A stretch of DNA of 64,000 nucleotides from an uncultured delta proteobacterium (GTDB lineage: Bacteria; Desulfobacterota; Desulfomonilia; UBA1062). Each line of letters starts with the position of its first letter. The first letter of the stretch is position 1. The stretch is taken from the NCBI GenBank assembly GCA_963752595.1, contig CAVVYZ010000015.1, positions 128,001 through 192,000 of the forward strand, read 5' to 3'. The translations under genes were made by a program, and so were the position numbers. The notes under the pieces are model-generated. The model searched no databases, had not been told where the DNA came from, and saw nothing but the letters and a program-made list of their open reading frames with translations. Positions 23,122-41,102 of this stretch are shown piece after piece.

Positions 23122-24991
23122 ATGGCGAATCAGATTTTGGATGAAAGGGATCAGCGGTTCATCTTGTATGAGATGCTGGGGGTGGAGAAACTCTGTGGGT
23201 ATGAGAAGTATCGGGATTTCTCCAAGGACATGTTCGACATGATCCTCACCGAAGCGCAGAAGATGGCGGTGGATGAAGTTCTTCCCACCCTGGCCGAAGG
23301 AGACAAGGAAGGCTGTACGCTGAGCGACGGAAAGGTTTCTGTCCCGAAATGCTACCATCGCGCGTATCAGCTTTTCCGTGAGGGCGGCTGGATCGGGACG
23401 AATTTTCCTCCTGAAGAAGGTGGCCAGGGCCTGCCGGACAGCGTGAAGATTGCAGCCATCGACTGGTTCTACCATAACTTTGCCTTTTCTGCGTATCCGT
23501 TCGCGACCGAGGGAGCTGCGCACCTCATCCTGACCTACGGCACGGAAGCGCAGAAGAGAAAGTATATGGACAAGATGGTTCAGGGCATCTGGGGCGGAAC
23601 CATGGCACTGACCGAGCCCAATGCCGGATCCGATCTCGGCAATATGATTACCAAGGCGATACGTCAGCCGGACGGAACCTTCAGGATTCAGGGCACTAAA
23701 ATATTCATTACCGCAGGCGACAATGATCTGGTGGAAAATATTGTCCACCCCGTGCTTGCCAGGATTGAAGGCGATCCGGCCGGCACGAAGGGCATTTCGA
23801 TTTTCCTCGTGCCTAAGTATCTCGTCAACGATGACGGCTCCCTGGGCAGGCGCAATGACTATGAGATCGCCAATATCGAGCACAAGATGGGTATCCGGGG
23901 CAGCGCCACCTGCCTGATCAATTTCGGTGACAACAACAACTGCTATGCCGAACTGCTGGGTGACGAGCGAGAGGGCATGAAGATCATGTTCCAGATGATG
24001 AATGAGGCCCGTCTTGCCGTCGGCCTGCAGGGTCTCTGCAGTGCCTCGATCGCTTATCTCCATGCGCTTCAGTACACTAAAGACAGCCTCCAGGGCTCAT
24101 CACTCATTGAATTCAAAAATCCCAATGCTCCCCGCGTTCCCATCATCCATCACCCGGACGTCCGCAGGATGCTTCTGTGGATGAAATCCACCGTTGACAG
24201 CATGCGTGCCCTTATCTACTTCACTGCCTACTGTTTCGACATGGAAAAAGTTGCGAAGGACGAGGTGGAAAAGGACAAATGGCTTGGCATTCGCAGAGGT
24301 GCTAACCCCCATCGTTAAGGCATATTGCTCCGATATTGGCTTCAGGGTCACCGAGACAGCCATGCAGTGCTACGGCGGGTACGGCTTCTGCTGCGAGTAC
24401 CCTGTGGAGCAGTTCATCCGGGATGAAAAGATCGCATCCATCTATGAAGGGGCCAACGGCATTCAGGCCCTCGACCTCATCGGCCGCAAGCTCGGCATGA
24501 AGAAGGGCGCGTACTTCATGAATCTGCTCGGCGAGATGAATACCACAGTAACAAAATACAAGGACCTGACCGGCAATGCGGACATGGCAGCGGATGTCCA
24601 GAACGCCGTGAATAAACTCGCCGAGATGGGCATGTTCCTTGCCTCCTGCGCTAAGCAGGGCAAGTTCCTTGTGCCTGTCAACAATGCCTATCCCGTTCCT
24701 CATGATGATGGGCAAGGTCGTTTCTGGCTGGTTCCTCCTCTGGCAGGCCGGCGTTGCACAGCAGAAGCTCGATGCGCTGCCAAGGAAAAGGGTATTGACG
24801 AAAAGGACAAGACCGCCATAGCTCAGCTCATGCAAGGAGAACAAGGACGCCGCCTTCTATTCCGGCAAGATATATTCGGCCAGGTTTTTGCCAAGAACGT
24901 ACTGCCCGAGGTCGATGCGGCAGCAGTGGCCATCAAGACTGAAGACATGTCCATTCTGGAGATTCCTGAAGAAAGCTTCTGTTCGTATTAA
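23122..24991 (+). CDS. Acyl-CoA dehydrogenase, ~600 aa type (3' third interrupted by indels)
   Basis: GTMALTEPNAGSD, GTKIFIT, EHKMGIRGSAT, MNEARL, then in another frame TPIVKAY, GGYGF..EYPVEQ, IYEGANGIQALDL. Several frameshifts at about 24290-24890. Confidence 0.9.
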
Positions 24992-31355: not shown

Positions 31356-32300
31356 TTATCTGACGTCAAAGCCTTCAAAAAGCCTTTTGCATTGCTCAAC
31401 CAAAGGCACTGCCATCCAGTCTTTCATGGAGTCGGTATGGGAGGCCTCGCTGTGTTGTCCCAGTGTCTCAAGCTTGGAGAGCCAGAGGGGATTGTACGGC
31501 AACAGCTCTACCTTTGCGATGCCCAGTCCTTTGAGAAACCGTGCAATGGAAAGCAGGTTTTCATGCGTTGCCGTAATCCCGGGAACTAGTGGAATCCTCG
31601 GCAGGAGTTCTATTCCTGCATCGATGCAAGCCCTGCTGAGATCTGCAAAATTCTTCAGGATTCTGGTATTCGAAACGCCGCAGTAGCGTTTGTGCTCTTC
31701 CGCGCCAAAGAGCTTGATGTCATAGTAAATAATATCAAGGTATGGGGAGAGAGACGTAAGAAACCTCTCATAGTCAAAGAGCCCGCAGGTTTCCAGCAGG
31801 GTGCTGATTCCCATGGCTTTTGCCCTTTGCAGGAATCTGGATGCAAAATCCATATACAGCGTGGGCTCGCCTCCCGAGAGGGTGATCCCTCCACCGGAGG
31901 CCTGGAAGAAGGGAAGGTCTTTTTCAATTTCGAACATGAGTTCATCAAGGCCCCAGAACCTGCCGACCTGTGATAAGGCACCGCCCGGACAGGCATCCGT
32001 ACATTTCATGCACAGGGTACAAGCCTCCCTGTCGATAAAACAGGTATAGTTCCGGTCCAATGCCTTCTCGGTGCAGGCAGCGATACATGACCCACACCCG
32101 ATGCACTTTTCCTTGTCAAAGGAGAGCTCGATCTTAGCCTTCTTGCTCTCGGGATTATGGCACCACAAACAATCAAGGGGACATCCCTTGAAAAATATGA
32201 CGGTTCTGATCCCGGGGCCGTCATCCAGAGAATTGCCTTTTACCTCGAAAAGGAGTCCGTTATCTTGAGATCCCAAGGATTTCTCTTCGACCATCCTCAT
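31356..32300 (-). CDS. Glycyl-radical enzyme activating enzyme (radical SAM with 2x[4Fe-4S] insert)
   Basis: DGPGIRTVIFFKGCPLDCLWCHNPES, CIGCGSC..C and CTLCMKC..C, LSGGEP; start overlaps the GRE stop codon. Confidence 0.95.
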   Translation of the reverse strand: MRMVEEKSLGSQDNGLLFEVKGNSLDDGPGIRTVIFFKGCPLDCLWCHNPESKKAKIELSFDKEKCIGCGSCIAACTEKALDRNYTCFIDREACTLCMKCTDACPGGALSQVGRFWGLDELMFEIEKDLPFFQASGGGITLSGGEPTLYMDFASRFLQRAKAMGISTLLETCGLFDYERFLTSLSPYLDIIYYDIKLFGAEEHKRYCGVSNTRILKNFADLSRACIDAGIELLPRIPLVPGITATHENLLSIARFLKGLGIAKVELLPYNPLWLSKLETLGQHSEASHTDSMKDWMAVPLVEQCKRLFEGFDVR

Positions 32301-35260
32301 ATGCCGAATTCCGCCCTTTCAATCAATTCCATCTGCATGTCCCTGTTCAGAGTCACAAAGTAGGCGTTATATCCGGATATGCGGACGAGCAGATTCTGGT
32401 AGTTTTCCGGATGTTCCATGGCGTCTCTGAGTGTTTTGGAAGAGACGACATTCAGCTGCATCTGCATGCCGCCGAGATCGCTGTATGTTTTCACGTATGA
32501 ATAGATGTTATCCACGGCTTTCTGATGCGTCTCATTCGCGAGGCACGACTTTCACGTTAAAGGCGATATTGTTGTTCATGTTTTTCGGTTCCAGTCTGGC
32601 GACATCGCGGATGTTGTCCAGAATGCTCTTGGAGGCGTGCGGTTCGGGCGTCAGTCCCGGCGTAAAGGCTTTGCCGGCCAGCCTTCCCGAAGGAAGCGCT
32701 CCGGTCAGGGTGCCGAAAGCGACATGATTGGACATGGACCAGAACCCTGCCGTATATTTGCCGCCGCGGTAATTGATATGTTCCCAGAAACAGTCATGGG
32801 CAAGTTTTGTCACGCGGTTGGCTGTTGCCAGAGCTTCCTCGTTGCCGGAGCCGAACAGCGAGGCCTTGTTTTTTATCAAGGCCAGCAGGGCAGGGGTTGT
32901 TTTCAAAATTGGTGTTGACGGCATCCAGCAGTTCGCTAAAAGTTAACTTTCTTCTCTTCAAAGACAAGTTTTTTAATGACCATCAGCGAATCGGTGATAT
33001 CGGCAAGGCCGATACAGGCAGTGCCGGATGAGTTGTAAAGAGCGCCGCCTTTGGTAACGTCCTTGCCCTTTTTCAGCGGGCCTTCGATCAGGGCGGAGAT
33101 AAAAGGAGTCGGGCGGATGGCCTGATGAGCCTCACCCAGAAGATTATTGTATTCACAGGTCTGATCAGCCAGAGAAACGAAGCTGTGTGGCGAAAGCGTT
33201 GAAGAACGATTCGTAATCCTTAAAGTCTCCGGCCTTGATATCGCCGGTTTTCGGCCCCAGATCCCAGCGCATCAAGGGATGCCTGCCGTTGTTGAGAGCC
33301 ATTTCGAGCGCCGCCACCATGTTGAACATCATGCAGTTGGTGTGGCCGATATGGCGGCCGGAAAGGGTCGGCTCCACACAGCCGGTTGCCGACCAGTCCC
33401 GCAGATGCTCCGGCGGGATAATTGAATTCCGCGAGTGATGCCATGACAGCCTCGTCATTGTGGATCGAAGGAGTGGCGGTGGTATTCAAATTGACTTCGC
33501 AAAGCCGTTTCAGATATGTGGCGCTGTTTTTTCCCTATTGTAACGGGCATTGACGTTGGGGTCGCGGATGGAGAGCATTTCCGTGATTTTCAGAAAGATA
33601 TAAGTCATATCATTGACCGCGTCTTCGCCTTCCGGCGTCACGCCGCCCAGGGTGATGGCCTGATCGGAGGAACTGCCGCCGAACAGATAGTTGCCGATGT
33701 CCGGTATCAAAGGCAGATGATCTGTGCAGCGCATGTAAAAACAGCCGATCAGTTCGATGGCGTGCTTTATATATGTTTCCTTCTTCTGCTTTATCACTGA
33801 TTTTTTCCATGTCGGCTGAAAAATAAGGCTGAAGCCACTGATCCAGCCGTCCCAGCGAAAATCCGGCGTTGGTGTTTTCCATGTGCACGCCGACCCAGAT
33901 TATCCACATGGCGTTAACGGCTTCATCGAGCGTCGTGCAGGGATTCTCCGGAACATTCCGGCAGATACCGGCAAGACGCTGAAGCTCTTCTTTGCGAACG
34001 GGATCAGTTTCATTCGACGCCTCAGTCGCAGCCTTTCTAGAAAGGTTTTCCGCGTAAGTGATGAGTCCTTCGAACAGATAATCATTGCTTCAAGGGTATC
34101 TTTCTGTTCAGTCTGATCGGCGTGCCCGTCCCTGGCAAGCTCTTCTCTGATTTCCCGGATAATCCCCTTCGCCCCCAGCCTTAATAGCTTGGGGTAATCG
34201 AGGATAGTGTGGGACAGAGCGAGCAGTCTTCCAGAGAAAATAGACGGCAAAGCGGTCATCAAGGCTCTGGCAGAGCGGCTTACTGTAGAATCTCTCACCC
34301 ATTCCTTGAAGTTCCGCCTTGTCCAGAAGGGAAACACGGTGTGATGGAGGATTTCTCTGGTATCATCGCTGATATCGTAGGGAAAGAGCCGCCGGTAGGG
34401 GGTCGTAAGAGTTCACCCCAGATCATGGTTCCATGGGAATCGGGGTAAAGGACCACACCGATCTCATTTGTCGTGGTGGTTCCTGCGATGAGGTCATTTT
34501 TTCTGATAATGGGCTTCCTGTTCTCCATGAGATGCTTGAATGCATTTGCCTGCCTGAGCTCGGGAACCCATGGCTTGCCGTCCTTCTTTGTTTCGAATCC
34601 ATTGTTCCTGAACCATTGGGTGAGCAGCAACGGGCGTTCATGGCAGATGACAGGCTTTACCGTAAAATGGATGTCGAGGAATCTTTGGAGCCGGGGAAAA
34701 TCCTTCAGGGAGTAGTGAGAAAGATAGGGATCATCCTTGAGGTACAATACGCCGGGATCAATTGTGTCTCCCTTGAGCTGTTTATTTTCGCCCCTTGCCG
34801 GAGACGGGTTCGCTCCTATCCCGGAGCAGGAAACTGCCGGACTTTCCTGTCCCTGGCTTTTCATCATCTCGATCTGCTTGCCTTTTACGAACAGCGAGAT
34901 GAAAAAATTGAAGAGCTGGGCATACACGAGGTTTCCCTTCACGATCAGCTTGTTCTTGAGGATGAGGTTGAGCACCTCGTTCGGAGGCAGTGAGGCCAGG
35001 TCCTTCAATATGGATGTGTCGAGAAATACCATCTCGGTATCGACGTCTGCAGGTATCTTTCCGGAAACATTGACCTTGCCGTCCCGGAATGATATGCACT
35101 GCTCCACATCCCCTTTTTCCGTACGAAGCCCTATCGAGAAATTGAACCGGCCGTCATCCGTGCACAGATATTCTTTGAATTTGGGCAGGTAGTTAAAAGA
35201 AAATGCCATGGCCTGCAGCGCCAAATGCGTCGCAATATTTGCCATATTCCCCTTGAACAT
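32297..35260 (-). CDS. Glycyl-radical enzyme (GCVE eliminase type) with an N-terminal SCP2-like domain; ~990 aa reconstructed across about ten indels
   Basis: Start at ATG 35260 after AGGAGG. Fragments give ICHERP, LIAG, FSLGRLDQ, ITLGG, AVNDMTY, GCVEP (33369-33383), GLAD, ALPSGR, QLNVV, LLVRISGY (32369-32383). Confidence 0.88.
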
Positions 35261-35368: not shown

Positions 35369-36064
35369 TCACCCTGTATTACTTATCATTTCAGGTGTTA
35401 TCTTCGGCTGAATGCCTTCACATCCGTCTCCTGCGATAACCGGTTTCAGGAGATCACGGGCAACCTGCTCGATGATCTGCTCCGGATTATCGTCTACCTC
35501 GGGGAGGACCCTGCTGTTGTAGAGAGCAATGATTCCATGAAGGGTGCTCCAGAGCTTTATGACGAAGTAGCGTGTTTGATCCGGGGGCATGCATTTTGTC
35601 ATGCTGATCACGTCCTGAAGCGCCCTCGAAGTGATGTCAATGAGTTTCAGCGCAGTCTGTTTCTCGAAGAATGCCACGGGCTCGATCTCTGTGCCGACAT
35701 AGTCCCGGTATTTTGGGGCATCGGAGGTGAACATGATATTGTAGTAGTGGGCCTTGTTTATCCCGAAATCGATGTATGCCCTCACCATATCCTGGAGCTT
35801 GCGGGCCGGGTCGCAGGCAGATTCATAAATACCGGCAAACCGCTGGTAAAGCATATCGAAACCTTTGGTAAGAATCATGAGATAGAGTTCGTCTTTGTTC
35901 GAATAATAGTTGTAAATGGTTGTTGCAGTCATACCCAGGCGGGAGGCGAGCTTTCTCATACTGAAGGAAGTGAATCCGTGCTCTGAGATAAGAGCGAGAG
36001 CTTCATCAAGAATTTTTTCCCTGATAAGTTCTCTGTCTTCTTGACTCCGAGGTATCTTTGGCAT
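35369..36064 (-). CDS. TetR/AcrR family transcriptional regulator
   Basis: ILDEALALISEHGF..FSMRKLASRLGMTATTIYNYYSNKDEL; C-terminal LWSTLHG (WHG-like). Confidence 0.93.
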   Translation of the reverse strand: MPKIPRSQEDRELIREKILDEALALISEHGFTSFSMRKLASRLGMTATTIYNYYSNKDELYLMILTKGFDMLYQRFAGIYESACDPARKLQDMVRAYIDFGINKAHYYNIMFTSDAPKYRDYVGTEIEPVAFFEKQTALKLIDITSRALQDVISMTKCMPPDQTRYFVIKLWSTLHGIIALYNSRVLPEVDDNPEQIIEQVARDLLKPVIAGDGCEGIQPKITPEMISNTG

Positions 36065-36080
36065 ATATATCCTTTAAAGA

Positions 36081-36134
36081 ATAACACTGTTAAGATAACA
36101 TTGTTATATTAACCTCGGCACTTAAGGATGTCAA
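36081..36134 (-). promoter_or_regulatory. tetR-GRE promoter with tandem palindromic operators
   Basis: Minus-strand TTGACA(36134)-N17-TAATAT(36106). Palindromes TAACA-C-TGTTA (36082-36092) and ATAACA-T-TGTTAT (36095-36107). Confidence 0.7.
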
Positions 36135-36308
36135 GGAATGTATTGATACGGATTTTGGGTTATAAAGAGCAGAGCTGTAATGCATGGGAAGATGATATCC
36201 CTTTCACTCCGGAGAAAGGGCTGAATGCACCGAAACCTCTTGGGGAAAAGGCTGGATTGAACGGATCGCAACACACTTGTCCATCTGCAATAAACAAAAG
36301 GAGGGCAC

Positions 36309-38298
36309 ATGAATCGAGGATATATGGGAAAGATCCTGATGGTCGACCTCGCAACAGGATTCCGGGAAGAGACGATCCCCGATGAGGTCTATGAGAAGTA
36401 CCTTTCAGGGCTGGGCCTTGCAGCATACCTCCTGTACGACCGGATACCTGCAGGCGCCGATCCGCTGGGACCGGATAATATACTCGGATTCGTTTCCGGG
36501 CTTCTGACGGGGACCGGCAGCCTCTTTTGCCGGCAGGTGGATGGTGGTGGGAAAGTCTCCGCTCACCGGCGGCTGGGGCGATGCCAATTGCGGCGGCTCC
36601 TTCTCTCCTGCCATCAAGCGTTGCGGCTATGACGGGATATTCTTTACCGGGATCAGCGAAAAGCCGGTCTTTCTTTATATCAAGAATGGTAAGGTCGAGC
36701 TCAGGGATGCTGCATCCCTCTGGGGCAAAGATACCATCGGAGACAGAAGAGATCCTGCAGGAGGAATACGGTGAAGGACGCCCGGGTGGCGGTAATCGGC
36801 CCTGCGGGAGAAAGACTCTCCTTGATCTCGGGGATCATGCAATGACAAGGGAAGGCTTGCAGCCAGATCAGGTCTCGGTGCGGTCATGGGTTCAAAACGG
36901 CTCAAGGCAGTGGTGCTCGACGGAAAGAAACGGATCGGTCTCCATATCGGGATGAAGTGCAGAAACTGAGCAAGACATGCAACAAGTGGGTACAGTTCCA
37001 GCTTCCCCTCGGTCCGGGCATCGGCGTGGGATTCCTGGGCACCCTACTGAGGGTTCTGCCGACTGCCATGGCACATGGACGGCTTGATTTACAAGATGAT
37101 CCTAAGGCAATGGGGCACCGGGGGTTGAACCAGATGTCTCCCGAATGGGGTGATTCTCCCATCAAGAACTGGAAGGGGAGCAATGTCGACTGGCCCATGA
37201 AAAGGTCGAAATCCGCCAGATCCGGACCGCATCAAGAAATATGCGAAGCAGAAGTACCACTGCTACTCCTGTCCTCTCGGGATGCGGAGGGAACTGCTCA
37301 ATACCGGCAAGTACAGCGAGACGCACAAGCCCGAGTACGAGTCGGTCCTCGCCCTGGGCGGGCTTTGCATGAACGAGGATACGGACAGCCTCTTCTATCT
37401 CAACGAAATGCTGAACCGGGCGGGAATGGATACCATCTCGGCAGGCGCCACCGTGGCCTTTGCCATGGAATGCTACGAAAAGGGCATCCTCACAAAGGAA
37501 GATACCGGACGGCATCGATCTGTACCTGGGGCAATGCGAGCGGGATAATCGCACTGATTCACAAGATGATAAACCGGGAAGGGATCGGAGATATCCTTGC
37601 GGACGGCTCCAAGGTGGCATGCAGGAGAAGATCGGCAAGGGAGCAGAAAAATATGCCGTCCACGCAGGCGGCCAGGAACCGGCCATGCATGACGGCAGGC
37701 ATGGACCCGGGCTTTGCCGTACATTATTCGGTGGAACCCACCCCCGGCCGGCATACCATCGGTTCCCAGCTCTATTATGAGATGTTCCAGCTCTGGAAAA
37801 AGGTCAAGGGGTTGCCGAAGAAATGGCCGTTCCAGATCTACCACAAGAACAGCAGGTATACGGCGCATCACAGAGCAGGCCCGTGAAGCTGCTGCGTGCA
37901 GCAAATACATGAACGTGGTGAACGGTGCGGGTATCTGCATGTTCGGTGCCTTCCTCGGTATCACGAGAACCCCCACATTCGACTGGCTCAATGCGGTCAC
38001 AGGCTGGAATAAGACCCCGAAGAGTACATGGAGATCGGCGAGCGGATCCAGACGATGAAGCAGGCATTCAACATCAAGCATGGGATAGAGCCGAAGAGCG
38101 AACAAGCTGAGCGACGTGCACTCGGAAGGGGCCGCTCGCATGCAGGGCGCCAACAAAGGCAGGACGGTTCTCATCGAAAAGATGATGAGCGATTACTGGG
38201 ACCAGTTCGGATGGGACCCTGTCAACCGGCAAACCTACCCCGGAATGTCTGGCACGTCTTGGGATAGAAGCTTGATAGTAAAGCTAAAGGGAGGATGA
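36309..38298 (+). CDS. Aldehyde:ferredoxin oxidoreductase family (W/Mo), reconstructed across multiple indels
   Basis: GYMGKILMVDL, ADPLGPDNIL, KSPLTGGWGDANCGG, GYDG, GAVMGSKRLKA, PEYES, GMDTISAG, REGIGDILADG. The 3' end is approximate. Confidence 0.88.
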
Positions 38299-38732
38299 CG
38301 ATGCCTTTCACGATTACACAGGCATGTAACGGGTGCCAGGCATGTAGGAGGATTTGCCCCGCAGATGCAATCTCAGGTGAAAAGAAAAAACTCATACCAT
38401 CGACGGACACGGTATGCATAGAATGCGGTGCATGCGGCAGGATATGTCCCCAACAGGCCGATCCTGGATGGCTCGGGAAAGGCATGTACGCATGGTCAAA
38501 CGTTCCCAGTGGAAGAACCCGCAGTTCGAGGATGAAGACCTGCATGTCGTGCACCATCTGCATCGATGCCTGCCCGGTGAACTGTCTTGCCCTTACGGAA
38601 GCAAATAAGGCAAGGGACCTGCATGGGTATCCGTACCTGAAGGATGAGAAGGCCTGCATCGGATGCGGATTCTGTGCAGCCGAGTGCCCGGTGGATGCGA
38701 TTAGCCATGAGACCCTTGCCCAAGGAGGCTAA
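38295..38732 (+). CDS. Polyferredoxin with four CxxCxxCxxxCP motifs
   Basis: CNGCQACRRICP, CIECGACGRICP, CMSCTICIDACP, CIGCGFCAAECP; directly follows the AOR gene after a GGGAGG RBS. Confidence 0.88.
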   Translation: MTMPFTITQACNGCQACRRICPADAISGEKKKLIPSTDTVCIECGACGRICPQQADPGWLGKGMYAWSNVPSGRTRSSRMKTCMSCTICIDACPVNCLALTEANKARDLHGYPYLKDEKACIGCGFCAAECPVDAISHETLAQGG

Positions 38733-38819
38733 GCTCCATGAAACCGTGGAAAGAGGCCGCATAACAGTATGCGGGGCATGTCTGATTGAAGTGCCCCGGT
38801 CTTCACCTGGTGCATTTCG

Positions 38820-39603
38820 TCAGAACATGATTGCGGTGAGGAAGTAGTCGGCAATAAGGATGCAGACCGAAGATATGACGACCGAGTATGGTGGTGGAAT
38901 TGCCGACACCTTCGGCACCGCCGCTCGGTGCTGTATCCTTTGTAGCATCCCACCAATGACAGGATGAACCCGAAGAAGGTCGCCTTTGCCAGCCCGTGTG
39001 AAAAGATCCGAGATAGTATGACATAATCGACGATCCGGGCCATGAAGATTCCCTCATCGATGTGCGAGGAGCTCGACCCCCACCAGATAGGACCCGAAAA
39101 CGCCGAATGCTGTCGAAGAGAGGGTGAGCATGGGCATCATGACGATCGTGGCAATGATCCGGGGAATGACGAGGTACTGAAAGGGGTTGACCCCCATGAC
39201 GGTCAAGGGCGTCAACCTGTTCGGTTACCCGCATGGTGCCGATCTCGGCGGTCATGGCAGATCCGGCCCGGGCAGTTACCATGAGGGATGCGAGCACCGG
39301 GCCCAGTTCTCTGAACAGCCCGAGCGTAGTGGTGGACCCGACCAGGGATTCCGCCCCGAAGAGGCTGAACCCATGATGGGTCTGCAGTGCGCTCACCATC
39401 CCGGTGAACATGCCGGTGAGCAGTACAACTGCTGGTCGGACCGCATCCCGATGAACTCCATCTGCTTGAAGAACTGCTTCAAGAACACGGGAGGCCTGAT
39501 CAGCCAGTAGATCATGTCTGATAGATAGAAGAGTGCAGATGCGCCAACCTGTTCAAGAGAATGAAATGGTCAGCCTGTCCGATGATATGCGAAACATCTT
39601 CAT
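38820..39603 (-). CDS. mlaE: MlaE family ABC transporter permease (frameshifted)
   Basis: FTGMV, RELGPVLASLMVTARAGSAMTAEIGTMRVTEQVDAL, KATFFG, GCYKGY, GAEGVG spread over several frames. Confidence 0.85.
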
Positions 39604-39613
39604 TTGTTCCCAG

Positions 39614-41102
<1,489 letters not shown>

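Follow-up and report, generated by a model that had tools for sequence, protein, structure and literature searches.

A glycyl radical enzyme (GRE), a member of an oxygen-sensitive class, encoded in the genome of an uncultured delta proteobacterium (lineage UBA1062, Desulfobacterota) carries, ahead of its catalytic core, a domain that almost certainly has the fold of the SCP2 (sterol carrier protein 2) family. The gene lies on the minus strand at 32297–35260 of a 64,000-nucleotide stretch of contig CAVVYZ010000015.1 (positions 128,001 to 192,000), referred to below as the window, and was delimited by tblastn of the intact homologue P0001 in five segments, by nucleotide alignment with the related locus L001 and by PF02901 matches on the fragments. 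Judging from its Cys-x-Glu motif, its radical Gly and its nearest relatives, the core is of the 1,2-eliminase type, and the enzyme very probably acts as an eliminase on the head group of a lipid. The chance that the substrate is a sphingoid base is about even. We tentatively propose, with rather less than even confidence, a radical C–N lyase that would convert sphingoid bases such as sphinganine to a 3-hydroxy fatty aldehyde and ammonia. What is new is the SCP2–GRE architecture and its pocket, inside a known enzyme class.

The SCP2-fold domain comprises residues 1–135 (34856–35260, minus strand). An AlphaFold2 model built from a 90-row alignment had a pLDDT of 84.6 and the element order H-H-E-E-E-E-H-H-E-H, which gives the five-stranded sheet with flanking helices of the SCP2 superfamily. 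A Foldseek search with this model returned the SCP2 domain of UbiJ (E = 5e-7), together with alkylsulfatase SCP2 domains and eukaryotic SCP2. The ten best chains in a wide fold search (VIA) were all SCP2 domains (Z = 9.2–11.4), among them human SCP2, which aligned over 110 residues with Z = 11.4 and a root-mean-square deviation of 2.7 Å; the top 10 of both searches consisted exclusively of SCP2-family folds. A language-model atlas placed the domain with a score of 0.95 in an SCP2 cluster, 47% of whose members belong to PF02036. A preliminary description of this DNA, made from the letters alone, had proposed an SCP2-like domain from an N-terminal pattern and a low-complexity linker, both of which are found in the sequence. 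It had allowed that profile or structure searches might return no SCP2-like fold; the predicted structure matched such folds in both searches, and the proposal is borne out. The profile comparison that it suggested gave a mixed result: Pfam reported no PF02036 match for the window domain alone, but 28 of 52 homologous domains matched at E ≤ 0.1, weakly (best 4e-5), and the homologues P0238 and P0293 passed the PF02036 cut-off. Lipid binding in a hydrophobic cavity is typical of SCP2 domains (10.1101/587956), and by analogy with that family this domain likely binds lipid as well.

The domain is followed by a variable linker (residues ~136–165; 34766–34855, minus strand), in which mean column conservation is 0.41, compared with 0.60 in the domain and ≈0.8 in the GRE core. 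In the full-length model of P0001 the pLDDT drops below 50 at residues 139–158, and the linker is predicted to be disordered. The ICHERP motif, with which GREs of this type were expected to start, has its first residue at position 205. The claim that about 200 residues precede it in one indel-free frame therefore stands as regards the frame, residues 1–294 aligning without gaps to P0001 at 80% identity, but the extension proper is shorter, ≈165 residues, since residues 166–204 are conserved across the family and occur even in GREs whose SCP2 domain is a separate protein. Short contigs from near-identical strains span parts of the domain, the linker and the start of the core, likewise gap-free. 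The open reading frame (ORF) starts at an ATG at 35260 on the minus strand, preceded by an AGGAGG ribosome site.

The fusion is observed throughout the close relatives. A search restricted to proteins of 563–2000 aa yielded 538 relatives, and the best 120 of these all had the fused N-terminal domain, truncated at its N-terminus in one case; 117 of the 120 were 974–1002 aa long with PFL-like and Gly-radical domains. A search with a profile of the domain itself gave 299 representatives, and among the best 150 the long, non-repeat proteins were GREs; the repeat proteins P0226, P0229, P0272 and P0278 were set aside as spurious. Standalone copies were sought in a near-length search with the window domain, and the two matches both appeared to be truncated N-termini of fused proteins. 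Among 301 genomes of the phylum, the GRE core was found in 35 (E ≤ 1e-45), all of which also had the SCP2 type, and an SCP2 match without the core occurred in 5 further genomes. In a deeper branch (L094–L099), a GRE of 800–860 aa is followed by an SCP2 gene of 150–170 aa and then by the activase. This separate SCP2 gene sits between GRE and activase in 6/6 split loci examined, which strengthens the link between domain and enzyme; where homologues encode the domain separately, it is thus a related ORF and not the unrelated one that would have spoken against the preliminary description. The genome studied here encodes a second SCP2-fused GRE (G000:C1:74082-77054), which is intact, 54% identical to P0001 and has no adjoining activase gene, and two non-fused GREs with activases, on C13 and C9.

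When the split pair from L096 was co-folded it scored 0.91, whereas the best of three controls scored 0.00. Roughly 116 of 157 solved complexes attain this mark, as do 2 of 215 mismatched pairs. Different runs agreed on 89% or more of the contacts, and the pLDDT of the partner was at least 79. The alignments were custom-made and had fused members among them, and a PDB search found no solved SCP2–GRE structure that the prediction could have copied. In P0001 numbering, which is used from here on, the predicted interface comprises residues 278–338 and 519–525, the latter being a short helix between β2 and β3. This helix is described as the cap helix, which lies over the barrel and forms part of the wall of the substrate channel (PMC13450708). 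The split SCP2 protein and the GRE are thus predicted to bind, the contact with SCP2 lying on the cap helix beside the substrate channel, and the pTM of 0.91 for the full-length fused P0001 model would fit a domain held in one place. The substrate-capture role put forward in the preliminary description gains support from this predicted docking. The docking site is also where small subunits gate other GREs, and the domain could serve as a structural lid or as a sensor in the manner of the gating small subunits of BSS, the substrate being small and polar. The best-conserved residues (PPNE and GNL.Y) are predicted at the interface and not in the cavity, and identity to lipid-binding SCP2 structures is 9–20%, both of which would suit such a role. 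We regard it as improbable, given the typical lipid binding of SCP2 domains. In addition, the genes that recur beside the GRE in the loci examined include no transporter and nothing from a small-molecule pathway, and the named hosts of the fused GRE include Smithella, other Syntrophales and Desulfobacterales, which are fatty-acid degraders.

The core belongs to the PFL-like GREs by its matches to PF02901 and PF01228, its fold, the Cys and Gly codons in the window and the adjoining activase gene. Among solved structures the closest to it are A. fulgidus PFL2, propanediol dehydratase (PD), glycerol dehydratase (GD) and CutC, at 27–29% identity. Sequence and alignments locate the Cys-Val-Glu catalytic motif (C627, E629) at 33372–33380, the radical-bearing Gly codon in RISGYNAYF (G962) at 32372–32374 and the Asp532 codon in FGGSSSDQ at 33663–33665, all on the minus strand. 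Across 187 aligned GREs, which include 4 from outside the clade and redundant close kin, C627 and E629 are each conserved in 185 and Gly962 in 177 (9 of the rest are truncated). At position 532, 167 of them carry Asp and 10 carry Asn; in the split branch the residue is Asn or Val (6 loci aligned), and the second fused GRE of this genome has Asn. The C627-V-E629 motif is that of the 1,2-eliminases, but GRE isomerases also have CxE, and the motif is therefore necessary rather than specific.

Pocket residues were equated by counting along the printed alignment with GD, a numbering that reproduces His164, Cys433 and Glu435 of that enzyme. His351 corresponds to GD His164, Phe526 to Phe333, and Cys627/Glu629 to Cys433/Glu435, while other positions differ: Ala465/Gly466 replace His281/Ser282, Asp532 replaces Tyr339, Asn641 replaces Asp447, and Trp839/Met841 replace Tyr640/Ser642. 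Of the glycerol/propanediol dehydratase pocket (His164, His281, Tyr339/Phe344 and Asp447, where we assume the roles of His281 and Asp447), only the His164 position is retained. The His281 discussed in PMC4785665 belongs to another enzyme. GD Phe333, CutC Phe389 and HypD Ser334 occupy equivalent positions (PMC7077986), which places Asp532 at CutC Phe395 and HypD Phe340. The former is essential in CutC (PMC4453576), and the latter makes a cation–π contact with the substrate amine (PMC7077986). Counting from the Cys, Thr640 coincides with CutC Thr502. As aligned, the pocket matches no characterised enzyme, with an Asp in place of the aromatic residue of CutC, GD and HypD. The acid at 532, in place of the aromatic ring of two amine-handling GREs, suggests that the substrate carries a primary ammonium or a hydroxyl group.

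GD (the B12-independent enzyme of C. butyricum, 1R8W/1R9D) and PD (5I2G, 9RCO) share the GRE barrel (TM ≈0.9), the CxE motif and the His164 and Phe333 positions; the window enzyme differs from them in its extra SCP2 domain and lipid-type gene context. CutC (5FAU, 9F3W) is the best match of the active-site half and shares CxE, the Thr502 and Phe389 positions and the proposed C1-radical C–N cleavage. The CutC model TIGR04394, however, scored 386 bits against a cut-off of 1050, and the enzyme also departs from CutC in its Asp at the Phe395 position, its SCP2 domain and the lack of microcompartment genes among the recurring neighbours. Models for HypD (NF043068), HpsG/HpfG (NF048011/NF048009), PFL, IAD and HPAD gave at most 402 bits against cut-offs of 994–1150, and the broad TIGR01774 model was missed at 470 bits against 678; none of the NCBIfam GRE models was passed. 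A. fulgidus PFL2/PflD (2F3O), whose function is debated, is the best PDB sequence match (E = 1e-110) and shares a QA(V/I)T strand and an M-x-x motif on a late strand, but is 776 aa long, has no fused SCP2 domain, has Asn at the 532 position and is ≈27% identical. The SCP2 modules UbiJ/UbiT, the C-terminal domain of the alkylsulfatases SdsA1/Pisa1 and MFE-2 share the fold at under 21% identity and are attached to hydrophobic-substrate enzymes, whereas here the module is fused to or encoded beside a GRE, for which the PDB search gave no precedent.

Several variants of the architecture were seen. The full-length SCP2-fused homologues P0216 and P0247 lack the catalytic Cys-x-Glu, P0216 also lacking the radical Gly, and are possible inactive partner subunits. 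SCP2-fused GREs occur in tandem pairs in L048, L056, L061 and L074, and the second copy in 3/4 of these has a different pocket (Thr465, Gly641, Gln843), which suggests that the copies split substrate ranges. A fused sub-branch (L087, L088, P0221) has Glu or Gln at 351, DDG at 464–466 and Asn526; these residues make another reaction beneath the same SCP2 lid likely. Two proteins of ≈1000 aa (L093:9438-12443 and L101:6692-9694) with a weak N-terminal match to the SCP2 profile do not score as GREs, and the L101 gene adjoins a gene for a 4Fe-4S-type subunit; these may be cases of SCP2 joined to an enzyme of a different class.

In the proposed reaction, the adjacent activase would, as is known for the family, install the Gly962 radical, while the SCP2 domain, docked on the cap helix as predicted, would hold the alkyl chain at the mouth of the channel. 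The Cys627 thiyl radical would take a hydrogen from C1 and Glu629 would deprotonate the C1 hydroxyl, as in CutC. Ammonia would then depart from C2, Asp532 pairing with the ammonium or with the C3 hydroxyl, and the reduction of GD His281/Ser282 to Ala/Gly would give room. The resulting 3-hydroxy fatty aldehyde could be oxidised, perhaps by the aldehyde:ferredoxin oxidoreductase (AOR) encoded nearby, and enter β-oxidation. Both the substrate and the bond broken are what we infer from the pocket and gene context. The retained His351 weighs against C–N cleavage, as its GD equivalent, His164, protonates the leaving hydroxyl, and it would also fit dehydration. With PD and GD as the top structural matches and the His164 position and CxE conserved, the enzyme might be a C–O eliminase for lipid diols or glycerol ethers, converting for example 1-O-alkylglycerol to 3-alkoxypropanal, which could shed the fatty alcohol. 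The Asn532 of the split and deep forms and of A. fulgidus PFL2 could donate a hydrogen bond to an ether oxygen, and glpK lies 4 kb from the GRE in close relatives. However, the Asp532 of the main clade accepts and does not donate such a bond, GD Asp447 is replaced by Asn, the glpK linkage is confined to one syntenic lineage (9 of the 80 GTDB loci on which all neighbourhood counts are based), and the neighbouring reductase described next would be left unexplained. We therefore consider an ether or diol substrate unlikely for this enzyme; the Asn532 sister branch with its separate SCP2 subunit may apply the same design to ether lipids.

The sphingoid-base proposal draws on a classical short-chain dehydrogenase/reductase (SDR) of a single clade (support 0.996) that lies beside the GRE in 26/80 loci, 14 of which went into its search profile; the window is not one of the 26. 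The adjacency occurs in at least three separate GRE branches, counting the metagenome locus L176, in FastTree trees that left out most metagenome loci and near-duplicates. Ranks 1 and 3 of the atlas names for this SDR are 3-dehydrosphinganine reductase (KDSR), its C-terminal half aligns best, among single-domain PDB matches, with TSC10 (8JAT; 63 bits, gap-free), and 21 of the 35 JGI-named homologues among the top 120 matches carry the same name; these three sources are partly dependent. On these sequence matches the SDR appears KDSR-like, although, in contrast to TSC10/KDSR, it is bacterial and sits in a catabolic-looking operon. An extended SDR (HpnA/OleD-like, below cut-offs) is found in 23/80 loci, and where the KDSR-like enzyme and an OleD/3β-HSD-like SDR occur as a pair they would handle the C3 oxo/hydroxy centre. 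In the phylum, 13 genomes were assigned to the main clade (SCP2 profile E ≤ 1e-39), and 13 candidates were scored per genome. The KDSR-like SDR (E ≤ 1e-37) was present in 8/13 of them against 15/288 others, and a ceramidase-family match in 6/13 against 16/288; the 15 split-form genomes had neither. Unlinked to the GRE, a GH5 gene with a Glyco_hydro_5_C domain, presumably the architecture of endoglycoceramidases, lies three genes from a KDSR-like SDR in a single case (L212:5335-6720).

A number of observations weigh against this proposal. The profile of the full-length SDR ranks TSC10 only ≈40th, and the C-terminal margin over the next match is 63 to 56 bits. Co-occurrence is confounded by kinship, family f12 accounting for 4 of the 13 genomes with the GRE and for 8 of the 22 with a ceramidase match, so that both contrasts are inflated; only 4/6 ceramidase matches exceed the Pfam cut-off, and most are partial. 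The present genome (84% complete) has no KDSR-like SDR, the best match being 34% identical, and a ceramidase search of it gave no match. The SDR is absent from 54/80 loci and from all rumen/gut-type loci inspected, elsewhere the neighbourhoods of KDSR-like SDRs contain lipid and aldehyde genes of a general kind, and no sphingolipid gene recurs in them (136 ORFs, 17/20 loci), and the deep-branch locus L176, which has the SDR, has Asn532. Neither did a sphingolipid gene recur in the neighbourhoods of distant fused or split members and rumen/gut-type loci. A sphingoid base could also be cleaved at a C–O bond, phytosphingosine giving 3-ketosphinganine, which the SDR would reduce as an electron sink, or a HypD-like dehydration beside the amine giving a ketone. 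The KDSR-like neighbour would then work in its canonical direction, and His351 with Glu629 matches the dehydration pair of HypD and GD. Such a reaction would have to take hydrogen from a carbon inside a bulky chain, the SDR is missing from most loci, and an aldehyde product is indicated by the AOR genes that adjoin the GRE in this lineage and follow it directly in L015 and L121; we judge sphingoid dehydration improbable. Taken as a whole, the C–N reading, in which a widespread GRE clade with a built-in lipid-carrier lid would feed sphingoid bases to a radical lyase, is plausible at somewhat less than even likelihood.

The operon layout around the GRE is as follows. The activase, a radical SAM enzyme with a ferredoxin insert (31356–32300, minus strand; Pfam Radical_SAM and Fer4), is intact, and its start overlaps the GRE stop (ATGA); it is present in 67/80 loci, and the L020 orthologue passes TIGR02494. 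Upstream of the GRE on the same strand is an intact TetR-family regulator (35369–36064; TetR_N and TetR_C_33), found in 51/80 loci. Just upstream of tetR, at 36082–36106, are tandem 11-bp palindromes, TAACANTGTTA, 14 bp apart; the window contains 2 matches where 0.01 would be expected. A palindrome recurs at the equivalent position in ≈48/80 loci across phyla, as a pair in 35, and is likely the TetR operator, through which the TetR protein would repress the operon. A regulon scan of 10 other genomes gave single sites, in numbers that mostly did not exceed those of the control, and no other operator-like site in this genome resembled a promoter of lipid genes or indicated a wider regulon. The AOR gene is divergent and frameshifted (36309–38272, plus strand; Pfam AFOR_N, tblastn against L001). 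It is found in 14/80 loci, nearly all close kin, and is a candidate consumer of the aldehyde product. An EEP-family gene, a thioredoxin gene and an acyl-CoA ligase gene beside the GRE are conserved in close kin only and were not counted as evidence. In five Actinomycetota loci (L062, L066, L073, L074 and L078) the GRE lies near an acyl-CoA dehydrogenase gene, with a class III aminotransferase in 4/5 and an unannotated gene of ≈330 aa in three, an amine-handling context worth checking.

The copy in the window is broken. Intact homologues are ≈986 aa long (986 in P0001), but from nucleotide 854 onward the gene has ≈12 indels of 1–2 bases relative to its closest relative (positions 34406 to 32537), owing to which the frame ends at 331 aa. 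With this many indels within 1.9 kb, it could be a decaying pseudogene, a question separate from the function of the family. We think this improbable: the in-frame segments are still 77–85% identical with every catalytic codon kept, AOR, glpK and mlaE nearby are frameshifted alike, whereas tetR and the activase have unbroken frames, and the base absent at 34287 is present in a near-identical contig of low depth. Assembly error is likelier on account of the neighbours broken alike, the intact tetR and activase, and the contig that restores this base. Dense patches of single-base indels occupy 32500–34400 and 36300–40400 (GRE, AOR, mlaE and glpK), with intact flanking genes, and an acyl-CoA dehydrogenase gene at 23122–24991 is likewise split across two frames; the patches are probably low-accuracy stretches of the assembly.

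In a June 2026 review of GREs (PMC13450708), CutC is the only C–N-cleaving 1,2-eliminase named and the eliminase substrates are small and water-soluble; “SCP2”, “sterol” and “fused” do not occur in its main text. We found no description of an SCP2–GRE fusion in titles and abstracts, a scope that left out most subscription journals and supplements. An eliminase with a lipid-carrier lid would bring radical chemistry to the head groups of membrane lipids. A concrete, assayable route for anaerobic sphingolipid or ether-lipid breakdown would follow, and it might help to assign the long-debated A. fulgidus enzyme. With an invariant pocket, a conserved operator and many intact homologues, the proposal is straightforward to test, and the operator offers a handle for finding the inducing ligand. 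If an ether substrate were the right one, the enzyme would provide an oxygen-free route into ether lipids. If the C–N lyase reading is correct, it would be the second C–N-cleaving GRE eliminase, after CutC, and would allow sphingolipid backbones to be degraded by a kinase-free, oxygen-free route in sediments, digesters and the rumen.

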